A DNA stretch of 64,000 bases from Deltaproteobacteria bacterium (GCA_050263095.1 JBLNEW010000012.1:7572-71571), one strand, 5' to 3'; counted from the first letter of the stretch, positions 4,684 to 60,342 are shown. Notes: a model not told the origin generated them from the sequence alone. Translations and numbers: made by a program.

Positions 4684-5460
4684 TCATTTCCCGTCCCGGG
4701 AATCCTTGCCAAGGTACGCCTCTATCACGCGCGGATCGTTTCGTATCTCGCGAGGGGTTCCCCGCGCGATCACTTCGCCGAAATCCATGACCACGATCCT
4801 CTCGCAGATGCCCATGACCAGGCGCATCTGGTGCTCGATAAGAAGGATCGCCAGCTTGTACCGTGTCCTGATTCCGAGGATGAATTCCATCAGCTTCCCC
4901 ACCTCGGAGGCGTTCATGCCGGCGGCGGGCTCGTCCAGGAGCAGCAGGTCCGGCTCGGATGCGAGCGCCCTCGCGATTTCAAGCCTCCTCTGGTCCCCGT
5001 ACGGGAGATTTCGCGCAAGGTCGTCTCTGCGGTCCTGCAGGGAGAACAGCGAAAGCAGGTCCATGGCCTTTTCCCTTATCTCCCTCTCGCCAGCGTGAAA
5101 TCCTTCCGACCGGCACACTGCCGATATCGGCCCGTACCGGACGTTCGGATGGCAGGCGGCCCTCACGTTGTCCATCGCCGAAAGATTCCTGAACAGGCGG
5201 ATGTTCTGGAACGTACGGGCGATCCCGAGCCTGCTGATGGCGTGCTGCGGAAGCCCCGAGATCCGCTCCCCCCCCAACGTCACGGTCCCGCGGTCCGGCC
5301 GGTAGATTCCCGTTATCACGTTGAACACGGTCGTCTTCCCCGAGCCGTTCGGGCCGATCATGCCGACCAGCTCCCCGGCGCCCACCTGCAGGTCCACGCC
5401 GTTCAGCGCCTTTATCCCGCCGAAATTCTTTGCCAGCCCGCTCGCCTCCAGGATGTTCAT
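4684..5460 (-). CDS. livG: Branched-chain amino acid ABC transporter ATP-binding protein LivG
   Basis: MNILEASGLAKNFGGIKAL..GPNGSGKTT, LPYGDQRRLEIARAL, LLLDEPAAG. The internal ATG at 5460 overlaps the livM stop (ATGA). The upstream part of the track ORF is antisense noise. Confidence 0.85.
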   Translation of the reverse strand: MNILEASGLAKNFGGIKALNGVDLQVGAGELVGMIGPNGSGKTTVFNVITGIYRPDRGTVTLGGERISGLPQHAISRLGIARTFQNIRLFRNLSAMDNVRAACHPNVRYGPISAVCRSEGFHAGEREIREKAMDLLSLFSLQDRRDDLARNLPYGDQRRLEIARALASEPDLLLLDEPAAGMNASEVGKLMEFILGIRTRYKLAILLIEHQMRLVMGICERIVVMDFGEVIARGTPREIRNDPRVIEAYLGKDSRDGK

Positions 5461-8576: not shown

Positions 8577-9746
8577 TCAACGGTTCCCGGGTTGAACGGA
8601 TCGTTTATCCTGCGGATTCGCGTAGCTGATCCGATATATCGCCCCCGCCTTGTCGTCGGAAACGAGAAGCGCCCCGTCCGGCATGACAAGCACGTCCACC
8701 GGACGGCCCCAGGCGCTGCCTCCCTTGAGCCACCCTTGAGCGAAAGTTTCATAGCTCGCCGCGCGTCCGCCTTTCAGCCTGACCAGCGAAACACGGTAAC
8801 CGACGGGGCTGCTGCGGTTCCAGGACCCGTGCTCCGCGATGAAGATCTGGTTCCTGTATTCCGCCGGAAACATGCTCCCCGTGTAGAATCGCATGCCCAA
8901 CGACGCAACGTGGGCCCCGAGCTCCATTTCGGGCGGCGTGATTTCCCGTCCGGCGGCCCTGCCTCCGAAATCCGGGTCGCGCACGTCCTTCCCGTGCCGG
9001 TAAGGGAAACCGAAGTGCATCCCCTTCCGGGGGGCCCGGTTCAGTTCGTCCGGAGGCCTGTCGTCGCCCAGCCAGTCCCGACCGTTGTCGGTGAACCAGA
9101 GCTCTTTCGTCTCCGGGTTCCAGTCGAATCCGACAGTATTCCGCACGCCTGCGGCGAACGACTCGAGGGCCGTGCCGTCAGGCTTCATGCGCATGATGGA
9201 GGCGTACCTCGGGTCCTTTTCCTCGCAGACGTTGCACGGAGCGCCGACCGGCACGTAAAGATACCCGTCCGGCCCGAACCGGATGAACTTCCAGCCATGA
9301 TGGGTATCGCGCGGGAAGGTGTCTTTGACGACGGCGGGCTTCGGCGGATCCTTCAGGCGGGCCTCGATGCCGTCGTACCGCAGCACCCGGCTCACCTCCG
9401 CCACGAAGAGCGCTCCGTCCCGGAACGCCACTCCGTTCGGCATGTTCAGTCCCCTGGCGACGGTGATGACCTCGTCGGCGCGGCCTTTCCCGCCGCGATC
9501 GAGCACCGCGTAGACGTTTCCCGCAGTGCGCGTTCCGACGAACAGGATTCCTCCGGGAGAGATCGCCATCGAACGGGCGCCCGGCACGCCGGCGGCATAT
9601 ACGTCGATCCGGAAGCCGGGAGGCAGGCGGATGTCGCCGAGCGGCGCGTCGGCCCCCCGGCACGCCGCGGCGTACAGTAAAACCGTCAGCAGCAGCGCGG
9701 CGCCCGGACCCGCCCTGCGGAGTGCTTTCAAGACTTCGCGGGACAC
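8577..9746 (-). CDS. PQQ-dependent sugar (sorbosone/glucose) dehydrogenase family protein, secreted
   Basis: Signal peptide ([12 protein letters not shown]). Beta-propeller soluble quinoprotein dehydrogenase signatures ([30 protein letters not shown]). GTG start at 9746 with GGGAGG upstream. Confidence 0.6.
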
Positions 9747-47865: not shown

Positions 47866-47945
47866 GGTCGCGACTCCCCTGCGGCGCGTTATTTTATATA
47901 TTATTATACGGATAAAATATCATACGGAGAAAAGAGGCGAGGAGA

Positions 47946-49650: not shown

Positions 49651-50553
49651 ATGAAATCGCCATTCGTCATCTGCGGAGCGACAGGGAACGTGGGGAGGAA
49701 GATCGCCGACATCTTATTGACCGCCGGGGAGCCGGTTCGCGTCATAGGGAGGGAGCGGGTCCGGCTGGGACCCCTCGCCGCCAAGGGTGCGGAGCCGTGG
49801 CCGGGCGACATCGGGGACGCGTCCTTCCTGGCGAAAGCATTCGCAGGGGCCCGCGCGGTGTTCGCCATGATCCCGCCCAAACACGACGCCGCGGACCACA
49901 GGGGCTATCAGAACCGGATCGCGGAAACGGTGGCGGCGGCGATCGCGAAGGCCCGCGTCCCTCGCGTAGTCGCCTTGAGCAGCATCGGGGCGCACCTTTC
50001 GGAGGGATCGGGTCCGATACTGGGACTTCACCATCTCGAGAACAAGCTGGGCGAGCTCCGCGACGCGGCGGCGGTCCACCTGCGGCCCGGCTACTTCATG
50101 GAGAACCACCTCTGGAGCATCTCCGTGATACGCGAACACGGTGTCGCGGGAAGCCCTGTCCGGCCCGACGTCCCGATTCCCATGGTCGCGACGAAGGACA
50201 TTGCGCACGCCGCGTCCCGCCTGCTGCTGGAAGGGACGTTCACCGGGCACGCCGTCCGTTACCTTCTGGGACCGCGCGACCTGACGTTGTCGGAGGCCGC
50301 CGGCATCCTCGGCAGGGCGATCGGGAAGCCGGACCTCCGGTACGTCCAGTTCCCCGAAGAGGAGGCGCGCAAAGCCATGTCCGCGATGGGAATGTCCGCG
50401 AGCGCGGTCGATGCCATGCTCGAGATGCAACGCGGCTTCAACGAGGGGAAAATCCGCCCGACCCGGGATCGGGACGTGGGGAGCACAACGCCTACGACTC
50501 TGGAGGAGTTCGCCGAAACCGTTTTCGCCGCGGCGTACCGCAGGGCGGCCTGA
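49651..50553 (+). CDS. NmrA-like NAD(P)-binding protein
   Basis: CGATGNVG Rossmann motif. NmrA/atypical SDR family length. Confidence 0.65.
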   Translation: MKSPFVICGATGNVGRKIADILLTAGEPVRVIGRERVRLGPLAAKGAEPWPGDIGDASFLAKAFAGARAVFAMIPPKHDAADHRGYQNRIAETVAAAIAKARVPRVVALSSIGAHLSEGSGPILGLHHLENKLGELRDAAAVHLRPGYFMENHLWSISVIREHGVAGSPVRPDVPIPMVATKDIAHAASRLLLEGTFTGHAVRYLLGPRDLTLSEAAGILGRAIGKPDLRYVQFPEEEARKAMSAMGMSASAVDAMLEMQRGFNEGKIRPTRDRDVGSTTPTTLEEFAETVFAAAYRRAA

Positions 50554-50587
50554 ATCGAAGTCGTGATGGCATAGAAGCGAAGCGATC

Positions 50588-51259
50588 ATGTGCGGGCGAT
50601 TCACGCTGTTCGAATCCGGCCGGATCCTTTCGAAGATGTTCGACGCCCCCCTTTCGGACGCCCCTGCCTCGAGATACAACATAGCCCCGTCCCAGACGGT
50701 CCTTGTGGTCCGTCGCGCCCAGGGATCGGGACGGCGCGAGTTCGCCCTCGTCCGGTGGGGGCTTGTCCCTTCCTGGGCCGGGGACCCGGCGATCGGAAAC
50801 CGGCTCATCAACGCCCGCTCCGAGACCGCGCACGAAAAACCCGCGTTCCGGGCCGCCTACAGGAGCCGGCGCTGCCTTATCCCGACGAGCGGTTTCTACG
50901 AATGGCGGCGGCTCGAGCGGGCGAAGCAGCCGTACTTCATCCGCATGACTGACGGACGGCCCTTCGCCTTCGCCGGATTGTGGGAGCATTGGGAAGGGCC
51001 GGACGGAAACGCGATCGAATCGTGCGCGATCCTGACGACCGGATCGAACCGGGTCCTCTCGCCCATCCACGACCGGATGCCAGCGATCATCGGCCCCGGG
51101 GACTACGACCGCTGGCTCGATCCCGCGGACCGAAAGCCGGAATCGGCGAGCCCCCTTCTTGCGCCGTACGATCCCGATGAAATGACATCCTACCCGGTGA
51201 GCGCCCGCGTCAACAGCCCGGCGATCGACGACAAGGCGTGCATAGCCTCTCTCTCGTAG
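50588..51259 (+). CDS. yedK: SOS response-associated peptidase (SRAP/YedK/HMCES family) abasic-site processing protein
   Basis: Starts MCGRF (catalytic Cys2). Conserved SRAP motifs (NARSET, FYEW). Immediately upstream of lexA. Confidence 0.8.
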   Translation: MCGRFTLFESGRILSKMFDAPLSDAPASRYNIAPSQTVLVVRRAQGSGRREFALVRWGLVPSWAGDPAIGNRLINARSETAHEKPAFRAAYRSRRCLIPTSGFYEWRRLERAKQPYFIRMTDGRPFAFAGLWEHWEGPDGNAIESCAILTTGSNRVLSPIHDRMPAIIGPGDYDRWLDPADRKPESASPLLAPYDPDEMTSYPVSARVNSPAIDDKACIASLS

Positions 51260-51265
51260 CCGACG

Positions 51266-51295
51266 GTCAGCAGGTATGTTAGCATACCCTCATGG
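51266..51295. promoter_or_regulatory. Putative LexA operator (GGTATGTTAGCATACC) overlapping the lexA start
   Basis: 16-bp core GGTATG-N4-CATACC, 4 nt before the lexA ATG. Related to the 30-bp palindromes at 51913 and 58076. Confidence 0.55.
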
Positions 51296-51903
51296 GCGCT
51301 CCACTCACCCGGTCGCAGCGGCAGGTCCTGGCGTTCATCCGGGAGTTCATCGCGCGCCACAGGTTCGCCCCCACGGCCAGGGAGATCGCCGCGCGCTTCG
51401 GCATCGCCGAGAAGAACGGCTTCTACTACCTGGACGTCCTCGAGCGCAAGGGGTTTTTAAGGCGCGGAAAGCACCAGCCCCGGCGGATCGAGCTCCTTGG
51501 AGAGCCCCTGCCCCGGACTCCGGCGCGGGTGCCCGTCCTGGGCCGCGTCCCGGCAGGCAACCCCCTGGAAGCGTTAGAGGAGATCGAGGAAGAGCTGTTC
51601 CTGGACCCCTCCCTGCTGGGAGAAGGGGAAGTCTTCTCCCTGCGCGTCAAGGGGGACAGCATGGAAGGCGCCCACATCTGCGACGGGGATTACGTCCTGG
51701 TCAGGGCGCAGCAGGACGCCGAGGGAGGGGAAATCGTCGTGGCGGTGATCGACGGAGATGCCACGGTCAAGAGGTTCCGCCGGCAGCGCGGCAAGGTAAA
51801 GCTCGAGGCGGCCAACCCGTCCTACCCGCCGATCGCCGTCCCCGCCGACTCGCCCCATTTCCGCATCGCAGGCAAGGTCATCGGGGTCTTCCGGAAAATG
51901 TAG
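51292..51903 (+). CDS. lexA: LexA repressor
   Basis: N-terminal winged HTH. Ala-Gly cleavage-site region. S24 peptidase Ser...Lys dyad (GDSMEG ... KRF). Confidence 0.85.
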   Translation: MGAPLTRSQRQVLAFIREFIARHRFAPTAREIAARFGIAEKNGFYYLDVLERKGFLRRGKHQPRRIELLGEPLPRTPARVPVLGRVPAGNPLEALEEIEEELFLDPSLLGEGEVFSLRVKGDSMEGAHICDGDYVLVRAQQDAEGGEIVVAVIDGDATVKRFRRQRGKVKLEAANPSYPPIAVPADSPHFRIAGKVIGVFRKM

Positions 51904-51912
51904 GCCAGGCCG

Positions 51913-51942
51913 CCATATAGGTATGTTAACATACCTATATGG
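51913..51942. promoter_or_regulatory. Perfect 30-bp palindrome CCATATAGGTATGTTAACATACCTATATGG (putative LexA operator) overlapping the downstream start codon
   Basis: The reverse complement is identical. The ATG of the next gene (51939) lies inside the right arm. Confidence 0.6.
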
Positions 51943-52595
51943 GCAATCCGGCCGATATCGAGCGCGCCTCCTTCATCTGCCTCTCCCCGCCTCCGGGCAG
52001 GATGGCGGGGATCTTCGGAGACGGGGCCTGCCCCCTGGCGCTGCGGGCGCTGGCCCGGCCGCTGCTGCTCGGGGAAGCCGTCGTCGCCGTGGACGGGGGG
52101 AACCGGTTCGACCCGTACGAGATCGGCAAGGCGGCCAGGGCGCTGGGGGGAGACGGGAAGGACGCCCTCGAAAGGATCCGCGTCTCCCGGGCGTTCACCT
52201 GCCACCAGATGGAGGCGCTCCTGGTCCGCAAGCTGCCTTCCGCCCTGGCACGGTACGACGCCCGGCTTGCCCTGGTCCTGGGCCTGCCGGAGACGTTCAC
52301 GGACGCCGACGTCCCGTACGCGGAGGCTTGCCGCATCTTCCGTAGCTGCCTGTCCGCGCTGCGGCGGATCGCCTGGAAGGGAACCCGCATAGTGCTTGTC
52401 GGCAAGGCGGAAGCCGCAAGGCGGGGCGCGGGATATCGTTCCCCGGCGCCCGCCGCCGAAAACCGCGACGGGTTTTTCCGGCACCTCGCCCGGACGGCCG
52501 ATCCCGTGCTCCTTCTGCACCGGGAAGAAAACGGGCTGCGGTGGGAGCTGCGCCGGAGAGGCGCTTCCCCTGCCCGCCTGCCGGGAGGACGATGA
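51939..52595 (+). CDS. Putative SOS-induced RecA-fold-like protein (ImuA/SulA-like, hypothetical)
   Basis: 218-aa ORF directly after lexA with the operator at its start. Degenerate P-loop-like VAVDGGNRFD. Function inferred from context only. Confidence 0.4.
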   Translation: MGNPADIERASFICLSPPPGRMAGIFGDGACPLALRALARPLLLGEAVVAVDGGNRFDPYEIGKAARALGGDGKDALERIRVSRAFTCHQMEALLVRKLPSALARYDARLALVLGLPETFTDADVPYAEACRIFRSCLSALRRIAWKGTRIVLVGKAEAARRGAGYRSPAPAAENRDGFFRHLARTADPVLLLHREENGLRWELRRRGASPARLPGGR

Positions 52596-52889
52596 ATGGG
52601 CCGCACGGTGCTCCCGTTCACCCAGGAGCTGTACCGCGAGGAGGAATCCTGGAAATCGTTCCGGCGTGCGCTGCGCCGCGAGGACCGGGAGCTCTTCGAC
52701 GAGCTGTTCGCCGCCGCCCGCTACCACACGGCCGCCTGCACCTGCTCTGGTCGGGCCGTCCCCTTCGAGGCGATCCTGATGAGCATCCTGCTCGAGGAGC
52801 GGCGGGCGGTGCGCGAACTCTCCCGCCGGCTGGACGAGCTGGCGCGCCGGCTGATGGAGGGGGAACCGAAATGCCCAGGCGGCAAATGA
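52596..52889 (+). CDS. Hypothetical small protein, translationally coupled to the preceding gene
   Basis: 97 aa. Its start abuts the preceding stop. Charged/helical. Confidence 0.3.
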   Translation: MGRTVLPFTQELYREEESWKSFRRALRREDRELFDELFAAARYHTAACTCSGRAVPFEAILMSILLEERRAVRELSRRLDELARRLMEGEPKCPGGK

Positions 52890-52968
52890 AGTTTCACTGA
52901 ATGCCTTCCGATAAAACTGTTGATAAGTTCCGGCACGCGACGCAGATCCTATTTGGGGAAGGATACCC

Positions 52969-54297
52969 GTGGATTCGTTTTCATCCCTGATAACAAAAGC
53001 GGCACTGCTGTTCCTGGGCATCGCCCTGTTCGCCGAGTACCTGTTCCGGAGACGCAAATTACTGGCCGAGTCCGGAAAGAACAGGTCCAAACAGCAAAAA
53101 CTCATTGAATTTTCGAAGGAATTGAAATTACTTAAGAAGAACCTTGCCCGAAAGACCGAAATCGCCGACCAGATTCCCCTTATCATCAAGAAGCTGACTG
53201 AGAATCTTAGTCAAAGCTCCCTTCCCGCAATGGCCGTCCGGTCCGCCAAGGAGCTGTTCCATGCGGAGAAGGCGGGATTCTTCACCCCGGTCAACGGCAC
53301 CGCCGAATATACCCTGGAGGTCGGCGCCGGCTTCCCCCCCGATTGGCAGGGCAAGATAAGAATCGACGCCGACGAGGGAATCCTGGGCATGGCGCTCCAG
53401 AAGAAGGTGGTGGTCTCCCGGATGGATCCGCTCTCATTCGCCGGCAGAAGATCGTCCAGCCGGTCGCTCGAGCAGCTTGGGGCAATCCCCGACTTCGTAG
53501 CGCCGGTTTTCGGCGTTTCCGGAACGATAGGCGCCCTTGTCATCGCCGGTTGTCCGTTCCCCCTCGAAGAGGAGCGGAAATACATGTCGATGCTCGCCGA
53601 TCTGCTCTCCACCGCCATGCAGAAGGCGACCCTTATCGATTCGAGCATATCCAGGTCCTGGGTCGATCACCTGACCGGCGTATCCAACAGGCTGCATTTC
53701 CTGCAGAGGTTCGAGAGCGAAGTCCGGCGCTCCGAGAACTATCGGCAAGCGCTGGCCCTGTTCATGTTCGACATAGACGAGTTCAAAAAGATCAACGACA
53801 CGTACGGACATGCCGCAGGAGACGTCGTGCTGAAGAAAATGGTGGAAATCGTCAGGCAGAACACCCGGAGCTCCGACCTTATCGGGCGATTCGGGGGCGA
53901 CGAGTTCATGGTGCTGATGATGTCTTCCAACGCGGAACAGTCGCGCCATTACGCCGAGAAGCTGCGTGAGATCATCTCCGCGACGGATATCCGGATTCCG
54001 GGACAGGACGCTCCCGTCCGCCTGACGATCAGCGGCGGATTGGCGATGTGGCCGGTCGACGGGCAGTCGACCACCGAATTGATGCAGTGCGCCGATGTCG
54101 CCCTCTACGAAGCGAAACGCAAAGGAAGGAACAACATCGTTCTCATCCAATCCCTGGGCCTTGACGGCGCGATCCTCCACGGGCAGGGATCGGAGCCGGC
54201 GAAGCAGGTCCCGGCAGCCGGCGATAATGCGGCAGGCATCGAGGAAAAGGATGGCGTCCTGGAGCTGTGCGACGACGAATGGGAATCGCTGGCATGA
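52969..54297 (+). CDS. Membrane-anchored GAF-GGDEF diguanylate cyclase
   Basis: N-terminal TM. GAF-like region. GGDEF active site RFGGDEF with RxxD I-site. The 5' part has markedly lower GC. Confidence 0.75.
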   Translation: MDSFSSLITKAALLFLGIALFAEYLFRRRKLLAESGKNRSKQQKLIEFSKELKLLKKNLARKTEIADQIPLIIKKLTENLSQSSLPAMAVRSAKELFHAEKAGFFTPVNGTAEYTLEVGAGFPPDWQGKIRIDADEGILGMALQKKVVVSRMDPLSFAGRRSSSRSLEQLGAIPDFVAPVFGVSGTIGALVIAGCPFPLEEERKYMSMLADLLSTAMQKATLIDSSISRSWVDHLTGVSNRLHFLQRFESEVRRSENYRQALALFMFDIDEFKKINDTYGHAAGDVVLKKMVEIVRQNTRSSDLIGRFGGDEFMVLMMSSNAEQSRHYAEKLREIISATDIRIPGQDAPVRLTISGGLAMWPVDGQSTTELMQCADVALYEAKRKGRNNIVLIQSLGLDGAILHGQGSEPAKQVPAAGDNAAGIEEKDGVLELCDDEWESLA

Positions 54298-56969
54298 AGA
54301 ACCTGTCCAGGTTCAGGAACAGCATCGCGATTCCCATCGTCTTCATCCTGCTGATACTGACCGCCGGGATACTTCTGGCGGGCTTTCAGATCAACAGGAA
54401 CGTTTTTTACAACGTTTTCGAAGAGAGGGAGAAAAGCAAGGCGAAAAACATACACCTGACCATCGAATCCATGCTGTCCAGCGAAGAAAAAAGGCTCAAC
54501 AGCCTTGCGAAGGTGCTGAAAAGGGATACGGACATCTCGTATTCGCTTTACCACTACAAGCTTGCCGGCGGCGACTTGAGACCGTTGAAATCGGTCATGA
54601 ACCAGCTGTACGCGCAGATGAACCTGCCTTTGTTCATAATGGCGGACAGGAACGGGAACATCCTCTACCGGACGGACAAATCGAAGGAACAGGAAAAGCT
54701 CCTCTCGTTCGACGCGTTTCACGAGGCGTTGAAGGGAAAGCAGGTCATCACCGCATCCAGGTCTCCCAGCGGGTGGGGTCTGCGGGCAGTCGTCCCGATC
54801 CATGCCTTCGAGAATCGCGAGCCGTCGGGAATCATGATTCTCGGAAGCAGGATCGACGACGGGTTCGCGAAAAAGATCGCAAGCGAAACCGGCAGCCAGG
54901 TCTTCATCGCTACGCCGGAAGGCGTGATCGCCGGTTCGTACAAGACGCTGGACTCTTCGGCGATGGACCTGTCCCTCGTGAACAGAAGCCTGGCGGACAA
55001 AAAGCCCCTGTTCTTCGCGGACCGGCGCAATTTCCGATCCTACACTTACGTCCCGATCAGAATAATCGACGAGGAATTCTGCCTCGTCGTCGAGACGGAC
55101 ATAAGCGTCGTGAAGGAACTGTTGAGCAAATACAGGATGGAGATGTTCCAATGGGGGCTGATCATCTTCCTGTGCGTCGCATCGATAGGCGCCGCCTTCA
55201 CTTTCACGATCATCCATCCGCTGAACGAACTGCAGGAAAAAGCCCGCGGGGTCGTCAGGGAATATTCCGGGGACGATTCGAAAGCCGCCTCCAGGGGAAA
55301 CGAGATATCGACGCTGGTGCGGGCGTTCAACCTGATGGTGGAAACCATCAGGGACCACATTTCCGAGCGGAAAAAAACCGAAGAGGCGCTGCGTGAGACC
55401 GGACGAACGCTCCAGGCGCTGATCGAAGCATCTCCGCTGGCCATCATCGTCACCGACGCATCCGGCGATATAAAGGTATGGAATCCCGCCGCCGTGCACA
55501 TCTTCGGATGGAGCGGGAACGAGGCGATCGGCCGAGGGAACCCCATCTGCGCGAAAGAGGGGAATTCCGAGCTCGGCGCCATCCTGACGCTGACGTTGAA
55601 CGGCGAGAAAATCTCGAACATCGAGATTCAATGCAAGGGGAAGAACGATTCCGCGATCGACCTTTCATATTACGGCGCCCCGCTCGTCGACGGCGACGGC
55701 CGGATCATCGGCATGACGGCGATCATGGCCGACATAACGGAGTCCAAACAGGCGCGGGATGCCCTGCGGCGAAGCGAGGAGCAGCTGAGGCAGTCCCAGA
55801 AAATGGAAGCGATCGGAAAACTTGCAGGCGGGGTCGCGCACGACTTCAACAATCTCCTATCGGTGATCACCGGCTACAGCGAACTGCTGATGGGCAGGCT
55901 CGGGAAGGACGGCCAGGGCTTTCGGGAAATCGAGGAGATAAACAAGGCGGGGGAACGCGCGGCCGCGCTGACCCACCAGCTGCTCGCTTTCAGCCGCCGC
56001 CAGGTCCTCAACCCGAAAACGATCCGGATGAACGATGTCGTGTCGAGCCTGGGAAAGATGCTCCGGCGCCTGATCGGCGAGAATATCGAGCTGGCGACGT
56101 ACGTCGACGCGGACCTGTGGACGGTGCGCGCGGACCCGATACAGATCGACCAGATCGTCCTCAATCTTGCGGTCAACGCCCGCGACGCGATGCCGCGCGG
56201 CGGAAAGCTCTCCATTTCGACTTCCAATGTCGAAATCGATCTTCCGCTCGTCGAAGGCCCGCTGAAAATACCGGCGGGACAATACGTCGTCCTCGAAGTG
56301 ACCGACACCGGATGCGGAATGGACGAGCACACCGTCGCCCGCATCTTCGAGCCGTTTTTCACCACGAAGAAGCACGGGAAAGGCACGGGCCTTGGACTTG
56401 CGACCGTCTACGGGATAGTAAAGCAAAGCGGCGGATACATCCGCGTCACCAGCAACCCCGGCAGCGGTACAAGCTTTATCGTCTACCTCCCCCGCGACAA
56501 TAGCGCCGAGACGGTGGACATGATCGAATTGTTCGCACCGGGGGAATCGCCGTGCGTCGAAACCATCCTCCTGGTAGAAGACGAGGATACCGTGCGGAAA
56601 CTGGCGTGCGAAACATTGCGGGGGTACGGATACACCGTTCTCGAAGCCTCCAATGGACCGGAGGCAGTTTCGGCCAGCGCGAAGTTCGACGGGACCATCC
56701 ACCTGCTGATAACCGACGTTGTCATGCCGGGGATGAGCGGGCTCGAGTTGTCGCAAAACCTTAAAAAAAGCCGTCCCGGGATGCCGGTGCTTTTCATGTC
56801 GGGGTATTCGGAGGAGGTGCTGTCGCGGGTCGGGTTCATGGGGCCCGGGGAAGCTTTCTTCCAGAAGCCGGTCACCCCTGCGAGGCTCTACGCAAAGATT
56901 CGCGAAATACTTCGGCTCACTTCTCCACAATCACATGCTGCTGGCGCATCCCGCCCACCACTAATGTAA
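54294..56969 (+). CDS. Hybrid sensor histidine kinase (periplasmic sensor, HAMP, PAS x2, HisKA, HATPase, REC)
   Basis: ATGA overlap with the GGDEF gene. H-box AHDFNNLLSVI. C-terminal receiver (LLVEDED...LLITDVVMP). Lower GC in the sensor half. Confidence 0.75.
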   Translation: MKNLSRFRNSIAIPIVFILLILTAGILLAGFQINRNVFYNVFEEREKSKAKNIHLTIESMLSSEEKRLNSLAKVLKRDTDISYSLYHYKLAGGDLRPLKSVMNQLYAQMNLPLFIMADRNGNILYRTDKSKEQEKLLSFDAFHEALKGKQVITASRSPSGWGLRAVVPIHAFENREPSGIMILGSRIDDGFAKKIASETGSQVFIATPEGVIAGSYKTLDSSAMDLSLVNRSLADKKPLFFADRRNFRSYTYVPIRIIDEEFCLVVETDISVVKELLSKYRMEMFQWGLIIFLCVASIGAAFTFTIIHPLNELQEKARGVVREYSGDDSKAASRGNEISTLVRAFNLMVETIRDHISERKKTEEALRETGRTLQALIEASPLAIIVTDASGDIKVWNPAAVHIFGWSGNEAIGRGNPICAKEGNSELGAILTLTLNGEKISNIEIQCKGKNDSAIDLSYYGAPLVDGDGRIIGMTAIMADITESKQARDALRRSEEQLRQSQKMEAIGKLAGGVAHDFNNLLSVITGYSELLMGRLGKDGQGFREIEEINKAGERAAALTHQLLAFSRRQVLNPKTIRMNDVVSSLGKMLRRLIGENIELATYVDADLWTVRADPIQIDQIVLNLAVNARDAMPRGGKLSISTSNVEIDLPLVEGPLKIPAGQYVVLEVTDTGCGMDEHTVARIFEPFFTTKKHGKGTGLGLATVYGIVKQSGGYIRVTSNPGSGTSFIVYLPRDNSAETVDMIELFAPGESPCVETILLVEDEDTVRKLACETLRGYGYTVLEASNGPEAVSASAKFDGTIHLLITDVVMPGMSGLELSQNLKKSRPGMPVLFMSGYSEEVLSRVGFMGPGEAFFQKPVTPARLYAKIREILRLTSPQSHAAGASRPPLM

Positions 56970-57333
56970 CCGACGTGCCGGGCTTAAGCTTGCCGTAGGG
57001 ATTTCTGAACATGAGGGAGTGAACGGCCGCCTCCTCCGGATTCCTTATTTCCGCCAGTCGGCCGATTCGCCGCAGGATCATGAGGTAATACTTTCCGCCG
57101 GTTCCCTCGTCGATCAGGTAGGTGTCGGCAGGGTCCGCGGCGATCTCCTTCATTCCGTGCAGCCGGACTTGGACGTCCACTATCTCCTTGCTCGGGGCAA
57201 GCCTGCAATAGACCACTTCGATCCTCGGTGCATCCGCCGGCTTCGGGACGTCCACCGGCGGTCGAACGGCTTCCCTGCGCGAACACGCCTGAAGAAGCGC
57301 AAGCAATACGGCGAACAGGATTAATTTCCGCAT
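56917..57333 (-). CDS. Hypothetical lipoprotein
   Basis: Lipobox LLALLQAC. No known domain. Its 3' end overlaps the convergent kinase gene. Confidence 0.3.
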   Translation of the reverse strand: MRKLILFAVLLALLQACSRREAVRPPVDVPKPADAPRIEVVYCRLAPSKEIVDVQVRLHGMKEIAADPADTYLIDEGTGGKYYLMILRRIGRLAEIRNPEEAAVHSLMFRNPYGKLKPGTSVTLVVGGMRQQHVIVEK

Positions 57334-57432
57334 CTTCTTCCTGACTCCGCGCCCCCCGAATCGTTCATGCCGACTGCAATATATCACGGAAGGAGGATTC
57401 CTCTCCGCGGGGGCCGGGAGCGGCCCCGCCGA

Positions 57433-57981
57433 TCAGCCTTCCTTGAATTCCGGGCTTGCCTTGGCGATCGCCCACGCGGCGATCGTCATCCCGTCCCATA
57501 TCGCGCCGGCGCCGATTCGAGCGTCGATCTCGCCGCGCGTCGCCCGGACGATCTCGAACTCCTCCGTCTCGTCGGGCGCCTCCCCTACGTACCGCAATCC
57601 CCTGGCGACATAGACCCGGCACATCTCGTCGGTGACGCCGTTGTAGGGATTGAACTCCCCGACCAGGACCAGCCTCTCCGCCGAATAGCCTGTCTCCTCC
57701 GCCAGCTCGCACCCGGCCGTTTCGACATGGTTCGACCCGTCCTTCACGCTCCCGCAGGGAAACTCGACGCTCTCCCTGTCCATAAGGTAGCGATACTGGT
57801 TCACCAGCAGCACTTTCCCGTCGTCCAGAACCGGGACGACCATGGATGAGCCGTTCGTATGGACGTAATGATACTCGCCGGGCTTCCCCGACGGCAGCTC
57901 TACGGCGTCCCGCTTGTACGTCCACCAGGGGTTCCTGAGCACGACAGACTCCGCAAGCTTCTTCCACGATTTAAGCGCCAT
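57433..57981 (-). CDS. NUDIX hydrolase (ADP-ribose pyrophosphatase-like)
   Basis: Nudix box GSVKDGSNHVETAGCELAEETG. Divergent from the polB-like gene. Confidence 0.75.
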   Translation of the reverse strand: MALKSWKKLAESVVLRNPWWTYKRDAVELPSGKPGEYHYVHTNGSSMVVPVLDDGKVLLVNQYRYLMDRESVEFPCGSVKDGSNHVETAGCELAEETGYSAERLVLVGEFNPYNGVTDEMCRVYVARGLRYVGEAPDETEEFEIVRATRGEIDARIGAGAIWDGMTIAAWAIAKASPEFKEG

Positions 57982-58075: not shown

Positions 58076-58105
58076 TCATATAGGTATGCTAACATACCCA
58101 TATGG
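58076..58105. promoter_or_regulatory. Third copy (27 of 30 positions) of the palindromic putative LexA operator, overlapping the polB-like start codon
   Basis: TCATATAGGTATGCTAACATACCCATATGG. The ATG at 58102 lies inside the right arm. Confidence 0.55.
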
Positions 58106-60342
58106 GCGACCCGCTCACCCCGTCATGGGACATGGCCGGATGGGTGTTCGACGTGATCCCCGCGCCGGGCGGTATGACCGTGTGGTTCCGCTCCGAGTCC
58201 GGGGAAACGACGGCGCTGTCCGCCCCTTTTCGCCCCTCCTTCGTCCTGGCGGGGGAAACGCTGAATGAGACGACCCTTCGGGCGGCTTCGGCCCGCTGGA
58301 ACTGCTCACTTGCGCGCGGGGAAGGCGCCGAGTTCTTCTCCGGCAGGGCGGTTCCCGCCTGGACTTTCACGGTCCCCGCGCCTGCCCTCCTGGGGCCTAC
58401 CGTCCGGAAAGCCGAGAAGGCGTTCGGGCCGGAGGCGCTGTTCAACGCCGACATCGCCCCGGAGCAGCAGTTCGCCTGCGCCACCGGGCTCTACCCGCTC
58501 TCGCGCGCCCGCGTGGAATGCGACGGCGACGGGACGATCGTTTCCTCGCGGGTCCTCGACTCCCCGTGGGATATCGACTCGCCCCTCCCCTTCTTTTCCA
58601 CCGCGCTCCTTCGCGCGGAAGGCAAGGGGCACCCGGAGCACGGGAGGGTCCGCCCGCTGGAGCTCACCGCCTGCGGCGTCACGCACGTTCTTTCGTGGGA
58701 AGACGGGGCGGGGTTCCTCCGGGAGCTATTGCGGCTCCTTGAAAGGGCCGATCCCGACCTGCTAGTCACGGAGTACGGGGACGATTACCTGCTGCCGCGC
58801 CTGCTCGGCCTGGCCGGCCGGCTGCGGGTCCCCCTTCCGCTGGGGCGCCCGTCGCGGCGCCCGGGGGCGGACGCCGCGGTCCGCCGCGCCAGGGAGCGGT
58901 CGTACCTTTCCTACGGCCGCGTGGTCTTTCTCGCCGCCCCGCACACGCTTTCCGGACGGTGGCACGTGGACGCGCGCAACTCCTTCCTATTCGGGGAGAC
59001 CGGCCTGCCGGGCCTGATCGAGCTTGCGCGCCTCTCCGGCATCCCCCTCCAGCGCCTGGCGCGGACCTCGCCGGGCACGGCCATATCCGCGATGCAGGTC
59101 GCCACCGCCCTGCGCCGCGGGATCCTGGTGCCCTACAAGAAGCGGGAGCCCGAGGAGTTCAAGTCCGGGGCCGAACTGGTCGTCACCGACAAGGGGGGGC
59201 TCACGTACCTGCCGCGCCCAGGGCTGCACGAGAACGTGGGCGAGCTCGACTTCGCCTCGATGTACCCGTCCCTCATGGACCGCTACAACATCTCCCCCGA
59301 AACGATCAACTGCGGGTGCTGCGGCGGCCATCCGCCCTACGGCCGCCCCGGCGTCCCCGTCCCGGAGATCGGCGCCCGCACGTGCGTCCGCCGAAGGGGG
59401 CTCGTTCCCGATACGATCGCCCCGATCCTGGCCAAGCGGCGGCTTCTCAAAAATCGGCAGGCGGCCTGCGCGCATCCCGAAGAGCGCGAGCTGTTCAGGA
59501 AACGGCAGACGGCGCTCAAATGGCTCCTCGTGGTCTGCTTCGGGTTCCTGGGATACCGCAACGCCCGGTTCGGCCGGATCGAGGCGCACGAGGCGGTAAC
59601 CGCCTGGGGGCGGGAGAAGCTCCTTGCCGCCAAGGAGACCGCGGAGAGCCTCGGCTTTCTCTTCCTGCACGGGCTGACCGACGCCGTCTGGGTCAAGCGG
59701 GAAGGCGCGTCCGAGGAGGATTACCGGGAGCTCGCCGAACGGATCACGGAGAAGACCGGAATGCCGATCGCGCTGGAGGGGGTCTACCGGTGGCTGATGT
59801 TCCTCCCCTCCAAGCGCAATCCCAAGGTGGCCGTCCCGAACCGGTTCGCGGGAGCGTTCTCCACCGGGGCGATCAAGGCGCGCGGGATCGCCATGCGCCG
59901 GTCCGACACCCCGCCGGTGGTCGCGGCCCTCCAGCGGGAGCTTTTGGAGCGGATGGCCGCGGCGGAAACGGCCGCGGACCTCAAGGCCATGCTGCCGGAG
60001 CTTCGCGGGATCACGGAGCGCGCCGTCGCCGGGCTTTCCGAGGGGCGCATCCCGCCCGAGGCGCTGGCCGTCGCGCGGCGCCTTTCCAAGGCGCCAGAGC
60101 AGTACGTCGCCGACACCGCGGCCGCCGCGGTCACCCGGGAGCTGTGCGGGCGCGGCGTGACGCTGCGGCCCGGATCCAAGATCCGGTACCTGCTTGCCGA
60201 CGGTAAAGGGCGGGCGATGGGCTTCCTGGACGGGAACGAGACGCCGGATTTCGCGCGGTACGAGGAGATGCTGCGGGAGGCGGAAGACGAGCTGCTCGGG
60301 CTTGTTCGGGAGCATGACCGATGCTTCTTCGGGAGCGAATGA
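58102..60342 (+). CDS. polB: Family-B DNA polymerase, Pol II-like, with divergent catalytic motifs
   Basis: Co-linear by eye with E. coli Pol II. Motif A DFASMYPS is intact. Motif B reads KWLLVVCFGFLGY (canonical KxxxNSxYG). Motif C reads HGLTDA (canonical YGDTDS). The exo II region reads YGDDYL (canonical NxxxFD). Confidence 0.65.
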   Translation: MGDPLTPSWDMAGWVFDVIPAPGGMTVWFRSESGETTALSAPFRPSFVLAGETLNETTLRAASARWNCSLARGEGAEFFSGRAVPAWTFTVPAPALLGPTVRKAEKAFGPEALFNADIAPEQQFACATGLYPLSRARVECDGDGTIVSSRVLDSPWDIDSPLPFFSTALLRAEGKGHPEHGRVRPLELTACGVTHVLSWEDGAGFLRELLRLLERADPDLLVTEYGDDYLLPRLLGLAGRLRVPLPLGRPSRRPGADAAVRRARERSYLSYGRVVFLAAPHTLSGRWHVDARNSFLFGETGLPGLIELARLSGIPLQRLARTSPGTAISAMQVATALRRGILVPYKKREPEEFKSGAELVVTDKGGLTYLPRPGLHENVGELDFASMYPSLMDRYNISPETINCGCCGGHPPYGRPGVPVPEIGARTCVRRRGLVPDTIAPILAKRRLLKNRQAACAHPEERELFRKRQTALKWLLVVCFGFLGYRNARFGRIEAHEAVTAWGREKLLAAKETAESLGFLFLHGLTDAVWVKREGASEEDYRELAERITEKTGMPIALEGVYRWLMFLPSKRNPKVAVPNRFAGAFSTGAIKARGIAMRRSDTPPVVAALQRELLERMAAAETAADLKAMLPELRGITERAVAGLSEGRIPPEALAVARRLSKAPEQYVADTAAAAVTRELCGRGVTLRPGSKIRYLLADGKGRAMGFLDGNETPDFARYEEMLREAEDELLGLVREHDRCFFGSE

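Follow-up and report, generated by a model that had tools for sequence, protein, structure and literature searches.

Introduction

The family-B DNA polymerase PolB2, the helical protein arCOG07300 (∼90 amino acids) and an inactivated RadA were described as the products of one operon by Makarova et al. 2014 (PMC4104785), where lexA is reported to join this operon in some bacteria, e.g. Leptospirillum ferriphilum (LFML04_0990-0993). The two partners of the polymerase were renamed iRadA and PPB2 by Timinskas, Timinskas and Venclovas 2025 (PMC11791011). Here, we describe a locus of this kind in a 64 kb stretch of DNA from a Deltaproteobacteria bacterium (GCA_050263095.1, JBLNEW010000012.1:7572-71571), which as a whole is called the window below. 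It is very probably a LexA-controlled operon for an archaeal-type, error-prone PolB2 and its two helpers that has become split in two, with each part carrying its own LexA switch.

According to PMC11791011, the bacterial gene order is iRadA-PPB2-PolB2 only, sometimes interspersed with other genes, and lexA, SRAP and DUF72 genes are enriched near polB2. The same article defines an N-terminal 'MGRT' arm in PPB2 and a D(K/R) motif in PolB2, and uses AlphaFold-Multimer to predict a PolB2:iRadA:PPB2x3 heteropentamer in which a PolB2 loop mimics the RadA oligomerisation motif. A C-terminal β-clamp-binding motif (QLxLF-like) in iRadA or PolB2 is reported there for no more than a fraction of the systems, and Dpo2 of Sulfolobus islandicus is cited as an active, damage-induced extender polymerase that is required for targeted mutagenesis. 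Its supplement lists 'SRAP LexA iRadA PPB2 PolB2' in a metagenome-assembled genome (MAG) of a Deltaproteobacteria bacterium and 'LexA iRadA PPB2 PolB2' in Candidatus Deferrimicrobium borealis, both with HGLTDAIWV/LTD. In the text of Kazlauskas et al. 2020 (PMC7544198), the terms PolB2, LexA and RadA do not occur.

The system in the window is the archaeal-derived iRadA-PPB2-PolB2 system as already published, including its lexA and SRAP neighbours, and the clade and arrangement are those of the supplementary entries of PMC11791011. The three families with their diagnostic motifs, the gene order, the upstream lexA and the SRAP gene beside it are all shared. In contrast to the published operon, PolB2 of the window is detached by 5.2 kb through four unrelated genes and has its own operator, and so does iRadA. 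Although 'interspersed' operons are mentioned in PMC11791011, the available parts of that article describe no operators, operator duplication or leaderless starts.

Gene content of the locus

The SOS repressor gene lexA (51292–51903, + strand) is followed, 35 bp past its stop codon, by the gene of the 218-amino-acid iRadA (51939–52595, +), a RadA/Rad51 core with a destroyed Walker A motif. The ATG of PPB2 (52596–52889, +; 97 amino acids, arCOG07300/Pfam DUF8156), a small helical PolB2 partner, directly abuts the iRadA TGA and is served by its own Shine–Dalgarno sequence, GGAGGA. After an interruption of 5.2 kb, order and strand are maintained by polB2 (58102–60342, +), which encodes an archaeal-type family-B DNA polymerase of 746 amino acids (PF00136, E = 1e-30). 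Directly 5' of lexA lies a YedK-like SRAP gene of the abasic-site-shielding family (50588–51259, +), for which the Pfam scan covers profile positions 1–214 of 214 of PF02586 (E = 1e-77); its translation begins with MCGRF and thus contains the catalytic Cys2. SRAP also adjoins lexA in four related loci (L003, L005, L012 and L017; tblastn). Public records label the four genes only as 'hypothetical protein'.

LexA is matched by TIGR00498 in the NCBIfam scan (E = 4e-58, 196 bits against a cut-off of 111) and by both PF01726 and PF00717 in Pfam, in line with a winged-helix DNA-binding domain followed by an S24 autopeptidase domain. The translated protein contains the Ala-Gly cleavage site (in VPAGNP) and the Ser/Lys dyad (Ser in GDSM, Lys in TVKRF). 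The gene identities, the family-defining motifs, the positions of the operators and the co-occurrence of the four genes across phyla are direct observations.

Co-occurrence in related genomes

A profile of the 218-amino-acid protein was scanned against one genome per GTDB species, which gave 80 loci; together with two further loci (L001 and L002) the set comprises 82. The five proteins of the window were placed in these loci by tblastn, and the ratios given here are over loci with enough sequence. LexA is encoded directly upstream of iRadA in 63 of 67 loci and PPB2 is adjacent to iRadA in 55 of 58. PolB2 follows PPB2 at a distance of at most 500 bp in 51 of 58 loci; in four it lies farther away, and in three the retrieved locus contains none. 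In L002, lexA, the iRadA homolog, a DUF8156 gene and the gene of a 763-amino-acid family-B polymerase are contiguous and overlapping. The loci are spread over Deferrimicrobiota, Nitrospirota, Nitrospinota, Rokubacteria, Methylomirabilia, Ignavibacteriales, Abyssobacteria and one Bathyarchaeia archaeon. As lexA-iRadA-PPB2-PolB2 is contiguous in the relatives, the polymerase that is encoded 5 kb away in the window is the cognate third component.

An earlier note on this DNA had read the SRAP, lexA, 218-amino-acid and 97-amino-acid genes, with the coordinates given above, as an SOS cassette and had tied a PolB-like gene 5 kb downstream to it. Translation and family scans bear out all four open reading frames (ORFs), lexA itself and the stop-to-start coupling of the 218- and 97-amino-acid genes. 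The comparison of the 218-amino-acid family with PolB-like genes proposed there, carried out over the 82 loci, reveals a tight linkage and places the polymerase with the cassette.

Two loci deserve separate mention. In L001 (= L027; 9364–10933 of a 326 kb contig, Deferrimicrobiota), lexA-iRadA-PPB2 is followed by genes for a 5'-nucleotidase and a TRAP transporter and no PolB2 is present within 10 kb; the polymerase gene is either elsewhere in this genome or lost. Pairs of iRadA and arCOG07300 without a polymerase are reported for haloarchaea in PMC4104785. In L046 (523–2066, a Bathyarchaeia MAG), iRadA (238 amino acids) and PPB2 are accompanied only by a 177-amino-acid ORF that resembles the PolB2 N-terminus (MERVEGWILDLHPG...), which suggests that the polymerase gene is truncated or frameshifted in the assembly.

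The polymerase

The closest PDB matches of PolB2 are Thermococcales PolB structures (E = 4e-50), whereas E. coli Pol II is far more distant (E = 3e-7). Motif A (ELDFASMYPS) is intact. Motif C (HGLTDA, residues 523–528) aligns with YIDTDG of P. abyssi PolB such that Leu stands where DxD has its first Asp; Nitrospira homologs have Ile at this place, and L/I-x-D is conserved across 54 homologs. Upstream of motif A, PolB2 contains TD363K364GG, with Asp363 conserved to at least 95% and followed by Lys, Gln or Arg in the relatives displayed. Asp363-Lys364 was equated with 253-DK-254 of the S. islandicus enzyme by relative position.

Residues 1–204 cannot be aligned to archaeal PolB, and the candidate Exo I region (FSTALLRAEG) contains no conserved DxE. 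Exo II has changed from NGDNFD to YGDDYL and the Tyr of Exo III is replaced (RWHVD). As judged from these motifs, the 3'–5' exonuclease has no active site. An E. coli-type Pol II was considered and rejected on the grounds of LTD in place of DxD, the lost Exo motifs and NCBIfam Pol II models that score far below their cut-offs. Near the C-terminus a stretch ...EELLGLV is conserved (EEVLGPLFS in L002), which by eye is only loosely QLxLF-like.

The replaced first Asp of DxD and the absent exonuclease site, together with the loss of the ATPase residues in iRadA, could also be accommodated by a complex that is catalytically dead or regulatory and serves, for example, to mark or resolve stalled forks or to control replication initiation, and an inactivated PolB2 has been put forward in PMC4104785. 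Dpo2 of S. islandicus, with IID in place of DxD, is nevertheless an active polymerase needed for damage-induced mutagenesis according to PMC11791011 and the works cited there. Moreover, conservation over 54 bacterial homologs reaches at least 95% for Asp383 of motif A, Asp527 of motif C and the Lys of motif B, which argues for retained catalysis. A dead or regulatory assembly therefore appears improbable, and an error-prone translesion polymerase is the preferred reading of PolB2.

Predicted LexA operators

A 16 bp palindrome, GGTATGYTARCATACC, occurs in three copies in the window, before lexA, iRadA and PolB2. Operator 1 (GGTATGTTAGCATACC, 51273–51288) lies 3 nt 5' of the lexA ATG. Operator 2 (51913–51942) is a perfect 30 bp palindrome, CCATATAGGTATGTTAACATACCTATATGG, with its core GGTATGTTAACATACC at 51920–51935 and the ATG of iRadA (51939) inside it. 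Operator 3 (GGTATGCTAACATACC, 58083–58098) lies 3 nt 5' of the PolB2 ATG and is part of a module of ∼45 bp that is evidently derived from lexA. With zero or one mismatch, the 16-mer GGTATGTTnnCATACC is found in the 64 kb window only at 51273–51288, 51920–51935 and 58083–58098, and the only other matches, at 9250 and 38415, have three mismatches each. At up to three mismatches eight strand-matches are observed against a mean of 1.6 in shuffled sequences, with none of 100 shuffles reaching eight, and the relaxed core GTATnnTAnnATAC has three exact matches against 0.09 expected.

The proposal that each promoter of the cassette has an operator thus holds for lexA, the 218-amino-acid gene and the polymerase and fails for SRAP: palindrome scans of the window reveal no operator 5' of SRAP or of the NmrA-like gene. 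The perfect palindrome that holds the 218-amino-acid ATG had likewise been noticed before and is longer than was then stated.

Among the relatives, 29 of 31 have a GTAT-N6-ATAC palindrome with unchanged spacing to the lexA ATG. Its sequence turns over between the variants GGTATGTnAnCATACC and TGTATAnTAnTATACA while its form is kept, and in the contiguous operons the copy before lexA is the sole one. L003, the closest relative, shares operator 2, which is missing at that position in L004 and in the relatives with contiguous operons. A palindrome that is conserved before lexA despite turnover of its sequence is the expected signature of lexA autoregulation, and from position and symmetry we infer that the palindromes bind LexA. 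GTAT-N6-ATAC is thus a candidate LexA box for Deferrimicrobiota, an uncultivated phylum.

The three sites in the window belong to a duplicated module of ∼45 bp, so their likeness could be due to common descent alone, and their role as LexA sites is predicted from sequence. They might then be the site of another regulator, or only promoter elements or RNA hairpins of duplicated 5' regions. Given that GTAT-N6-ATAC is kept at a fixed distance from lexA in nearly all of the relatives throughout the turnover of its sequence, as expected of an autoregulated lexA, and that the only copy in contiguous operons stands before lexA, we consider this highly improbable and retain the assignment as predicted LexA operators.

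L002 has a variant lexA operator, ACTATGTCTGGTAACATACC (9340–9372), in which the right half-site is kept and the left half is displaced by ∼4 nt; this is either a degenerate site or a spacing variant.

The accessory proteins iRadA and PPB2

Direct scans of iRadA against Pfam and NCBIfam at E ≤ 1 give only sub-threshold matches to Rad51, RadA and Dmc1. A word-indexed search returned 235 homologs; each of the 120 listed is an unnamed protein of Candidatus Deferrimicrobiota or of a MAG labelled 'Deltaproteobacteria bacterium', with an identity of 56% or more. A profile built from 39 sequences returned only RadB and RadA from the PDB, with RadB (PDB entry 2cvf) at E = 6.5e-4 followed by many RadA entries. 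The same profile retrieved 1555 proteins at E ≤ 1e-3 from 1.8 billion cluster representatives and hence describes a large family. In the alignment, the Walker A motif GPYASGKT of RadB corresponds to GDGA(t/c)(r/p)LA, such that its Lys and Thr are lost; iRadA of the window has GDGACPLA in place of GxxxxGKT and also has no N-terminal helical domain. The AlphaFold2 model (predicted local distance difference test score, pLDDT, 88; predicted template modelling score, pTM, 0.85) was compared with the PDB using Foldseek, and all 50 listed matches are RadA/Rad51/Dmc1 cores, the best with E = 4e-11 and a template modelling (TM) score of ∼0.67. Family scans, PDB profile matches and fold matches thus agree in placing iRadA in the RadA/Rad51 lineage, as a member that consists of the core only and has a dead ATPase site. 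Its C-terminus, ASPARLPGGR, shows no QLxLF-like β-clamp motif by eye.

For PPB2, 262 homologs were found, and all 120 listed carry PF26485 (DUF8156), including one that is 98% identical. The assignment of the window protein is taken from these precomputed homolog annotations, the local Pfam scan having given no DUF8156. Its N-terminus, MGRTVLPFT, is the published 'MGRT' arm, and Gly2, Arg3 and Thr4 are invariant in 28 homologs. The AlphaFold2 model (pLDDT 82) consists of a disordered arm (residues 1–6) and three helices (7–25, 28–50 and 57–88); Foldseek returned nothing significant for it from the PDB. The Bathyarchaeia homolog reads IGRTVPSY..., with a non-canonical start codon.

The 218-amino-acid protein had been called ImuA/SulA-like in the earlier note. 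Of this label, an accessory protein of the RecA superfamily that lacks the ATPase motifs stands; the family is a RadA/Rad51 core. Both named candidates were rejected: neither Pfam nor NCBIfam gives an ImuA model at E ≤ 1, the profile and fold matches being RadA, RadB and Rad51, and SulA gives no PF03846 match at E ≤ 1 and is not among the 50 listed fold matches. The structure predictions suggested in that note accordingly yield a RadA/Rad51/Dmc1 core for the 218-amino-acid protein and an all-helical model for the 97-amino-acid protein. Its observation that ImuB and DnaE2 do not follow is correct, since PPB2 and, after the insert, PolB2 are found downstream; the 80 related loci likewise show neither of them there. 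Pfam scans of ten large ORFs of the window and seven ORFs of the locus found no imuB or dnaE2 among these ORFs, a negative that carries no information on the genome beyond the 64 kb; the two ORFs of near 1000 amino acids encode a short-chain dehydrogenase fusion and carbamoyl-phosphate synthase.

A degenerate imuA-imuB-dnaE2-type cassette, in which the 218-amino-acid protein would be homologous to ImuA or SulA while ImuB and DnaE2 are lost or encoded elsewhere, would explain a RecA fold with a dead ATPase site directly after lexA, where ImuA stands. It is scarcely credible, however, given that only RadA, Rad51 and Dmc1 appear in the family scans, that all PDB profile and fold matches are RadB, RadA or Rad51 and that the genes next in line encode PPB2 and a family-B polymerase in 51 of 58 related loci and are never imuB or dnaE2. 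With no ImuA family match and with partners of archaeal type, the locus is not an imuA-imuB-dnaE2 cassette minus two genes.

The two systems also share features. Like the locus in the window, imuA-imuB-dnaE2 (ImuC) is a LexA-controlled multi-gene translesion cassette with an accessory protein of the RecA superfamily first after lexA, and the logic of accessory proteins plus an error-prone polymerase is analogous. They differ in that the accessory protein of the window is of the RadA lineage and not ImuA, that there is no Y-family ImuB, that the polymerase belongs to family B and not to family C, and that PPB2 has no counterpart.

Start sites

The operator cores end 3 nt 5' of the ATG at all three genes (51273–51294 for lexA, 51920–51941 for iRadA and 58083–58104 for PolB2, ATG included). 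Their centres, TGTTAGCAT in operator 1 and TGTTAACAT and TGCTAACAT in the others, read as an extended −10 element, TGnTAnnAT, with the −10-like hexamer at −12 to −7 relative to the A of the ATG. This promoter is our own reading of an extended −10 within the operator; a scan of 50400–53100 for consensus σ70 promoters and terminators gave no sites. The lexA upstream regions compared were those of L001–L044. A Shine–Dalgarno-like sequence between −18 and −4 is missing from all 31 lexA genes of this clade, and 23 of them have TAnnAT at −12 to −7. Five of the eight exceptions (L023, L024, L025, L026 and L028) have CAnCAT instead, each with TTGACC 17 nt upstream. In the same window, PPB2, the NmrA-like gene, the GGDEF gene and the phosphoenolpyruvate carboxykinase (PEPCK) gene do carry Shine–Dalgarno-like sequences. 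The spacing between operator and ATG, the missing Shine–Dalgarno sequence and TAnnAT at −12 to −7 together suggest that the three operator-linked genes give rise to leaderless SOS transcripts, with the −10 element occluded by LexA.

Apparent splitting of the operon

PPB2 and PolB2 are separated by a block of four genes from outside the system (52969–57981). It encodes a GGDEF cyclase (52969–54297, +), a Cache/PAS hybrid histidine kinase (54267–56969, +), a 156-amino-acid ORF (56917–57387, −) and a NUDIX protein (57433–57981, −), the cyclase, the kinase and the NUDIX protein being assigned by Pfam. The cyclase and kinase ORFs overlap by 31 bp. The GC content of the block is 0.50–0.62, compared with 0.64–0.73 in the flanks. 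The last two genes being on the opposite strand, and the gap being 5.2 kb, PolB2 cannot be co-transcribed with PPB2.

Most related loci (51 of 58) lack the block. A polB2 gene that stands apart from PPB2 is seen in five loci: the window, L003, L004, L056 and L076. L003 is Deferrimicrobiaceae SMAG_U3980, the proteins of which are 94–96% identical to those of the window. The content of the block varies, with only NUDIX in L003 (5678–6334) and the kinase plus a 150-amino-acid ORF in L004 (6959–10256). When the Deferrimicrobiota-group loci L001–L045 were scanned, extra operators were found only in the window, L003 and L004.

The 5' ends of polB2 and lexA in the window (58078–58125 and 51268–51315) have 20 of 24 coding bases in common, and the encoded N-termini read MGDPLTPS and MGAPLTRS, respectively. 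The PolB2 5' region CATATAGGTATGCTAACATACCCATATGGGCGACCCGCTCACCC differs from the lexA 5' region of L004 at four of 44 positions; the comparison also took in 6330–6380 of L003 and 5385–5435 and 10250–10300 of L004. This resemblance of the two 5' ends is confined to the subclade with a detached polB2. The N-terminal extensions of PolB2 in contiguous operons are unrelated to that of the window. To judge from these alignments, a lexA module of ∼45 bp, comprising operator, −10 element, ATG and first codons, has evidently been copied before polB2, and in the window and L003 also before iRadA. Three features are local ones: the lower-GC block of four genes, the lexA-derived operator and initial codons at polB2 and, as read from the start regions, the leaderless look of all three operator-linked genes.

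One scenario that would combine these features is that the lower-GC signalling block split the operon and that copying of the leaderless SOS module onto polB2 and iRadA rescued their regulation. The cyclase and kinase genes share the strand of PPB2, and no terminator-like site was found 3' of PPB2 (scan of 50400–53100), so that read-through from the LexA-controlled iRadA-PPB2 promoter is conceivable. If true, such read-through would couple DNA damage to cyclic di-GMP (c-di-GMP) signalling in this lineage. Taken as a whole, and being drawn from sequence comparison, the scenario is doubtful.

Proposed mechanism and comparison with other systems

We are confident that the locus encodes a LexA-repressed PolB2 'mutasome', a bacterial version of the archaeal translesion-synthesis complex. 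In undamaged cells, LexA would sit on GTAT-N6-ATAC over the −10 elements of three promoters (lexA, iRadA-PPB2 and polB2), each placed such that the A of the ATG would be the first base transcribed and the mRNA would have no leader. Upon DNA damage, RecA filaments would stimulate LexA self-cleavage and the three units would be derepressed together. iRadA, PPB2 (as a predicted trimer) and PolB2 as the catalytic subunit would then assemble, and the complex would extend primers beyond lesions or mismatches and would do so with no proofreading. The neighbouring SRAP, which has no operator of its own, may shield abasic sites in single-stranded DNA. We infer complex formation and stoichiometry from the AlphaFold-Multimer models of homologs in PMC11791011, and the translesion extender activity and damage induction are proposed by analogy to S. 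islandicus Dpo2 as cited there.

Several points weigh against this mechanism. LexA binding is deduced from the position and symmetry of the palindromes, and co-regulation of SRAP, which has no operator, is unsupported. The activity, complex formation and mutagenic role of bacterial PolB2 are carried over from Sulfolobus and structure predictions, and no experimental study of a bacterial PolB2 system is reported in the available parts of PMC4104785 and PMC11791011. Neither iRadA nor PolB2 of the window has a convincing clamp-binding motif, the ELLGLV-like C-terminal stretch of the polymerase being only suggestive.

The S. islandicus system of Dpo2, arCOG07300 and inactive RadA has three components that are homologous to those of the window. 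Both systems contain an exonuclease-dead family-B polymerase in which the first catalytic Asp is replaced, and both are damage-inducible, in the window by prediction. The Bathyarchaeia locus is 38% identical to the window in iRadA and 36% in PPB2 (tblastn). In contrast, regulation is of the Orc1/Cdc6 type in the archaeal system and would be by LexA in the window, and the clamp is PCNA in the former and would be the β clamp in the latter. Biochemistry and genetics relate only to the archaeal enzyme.

E. coli Pol V (UmuD'2C-RecA) and Pol II (polB) are SOS-regulated, as is predicted for the system in the window. Pol V also has a RecA-family subunit and a small subunit with an N-terminal arm that points toward the active site, a parallel that is drawn in PMC11791011, but unlike PolB2 it is a Y-family polymerase. 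Pol II resembles PolB2 in being a LexA-controlled family-B enzyme, but it consists of one subunit, its exonuclease is active and its DxD motif is intact.

Recognition of the PolB2 system corrects the ImuA/SulA label of the earlier note, and the independent co-occurrence counts confirm that the distant polymerase belongs to the cassette. The finding itself opens no new question. The locus would be an example of operon fission remedied by the copying of an SOS promoter module without a leader, and its compact, LexA-gated and seemingly leaderless units could be handy constructs for testing bacterial PolB2. To our knowledge, no multi-subunit translesion polymerase of family B other than the PolB2 system is known from prokaryotes; bacteria acquired this system from archaea.

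A weaker operator-like sequence

The sequence ATATATTATTATAC at 47896–47909 has one mismatch to GTATnnTAnnATAC and is not palindromic. It is located 37 nt 5' of the PEPCK gene (47946) and is probably just an AT-rich promoter region. A PEPCK gene is also found near lexA in L001.

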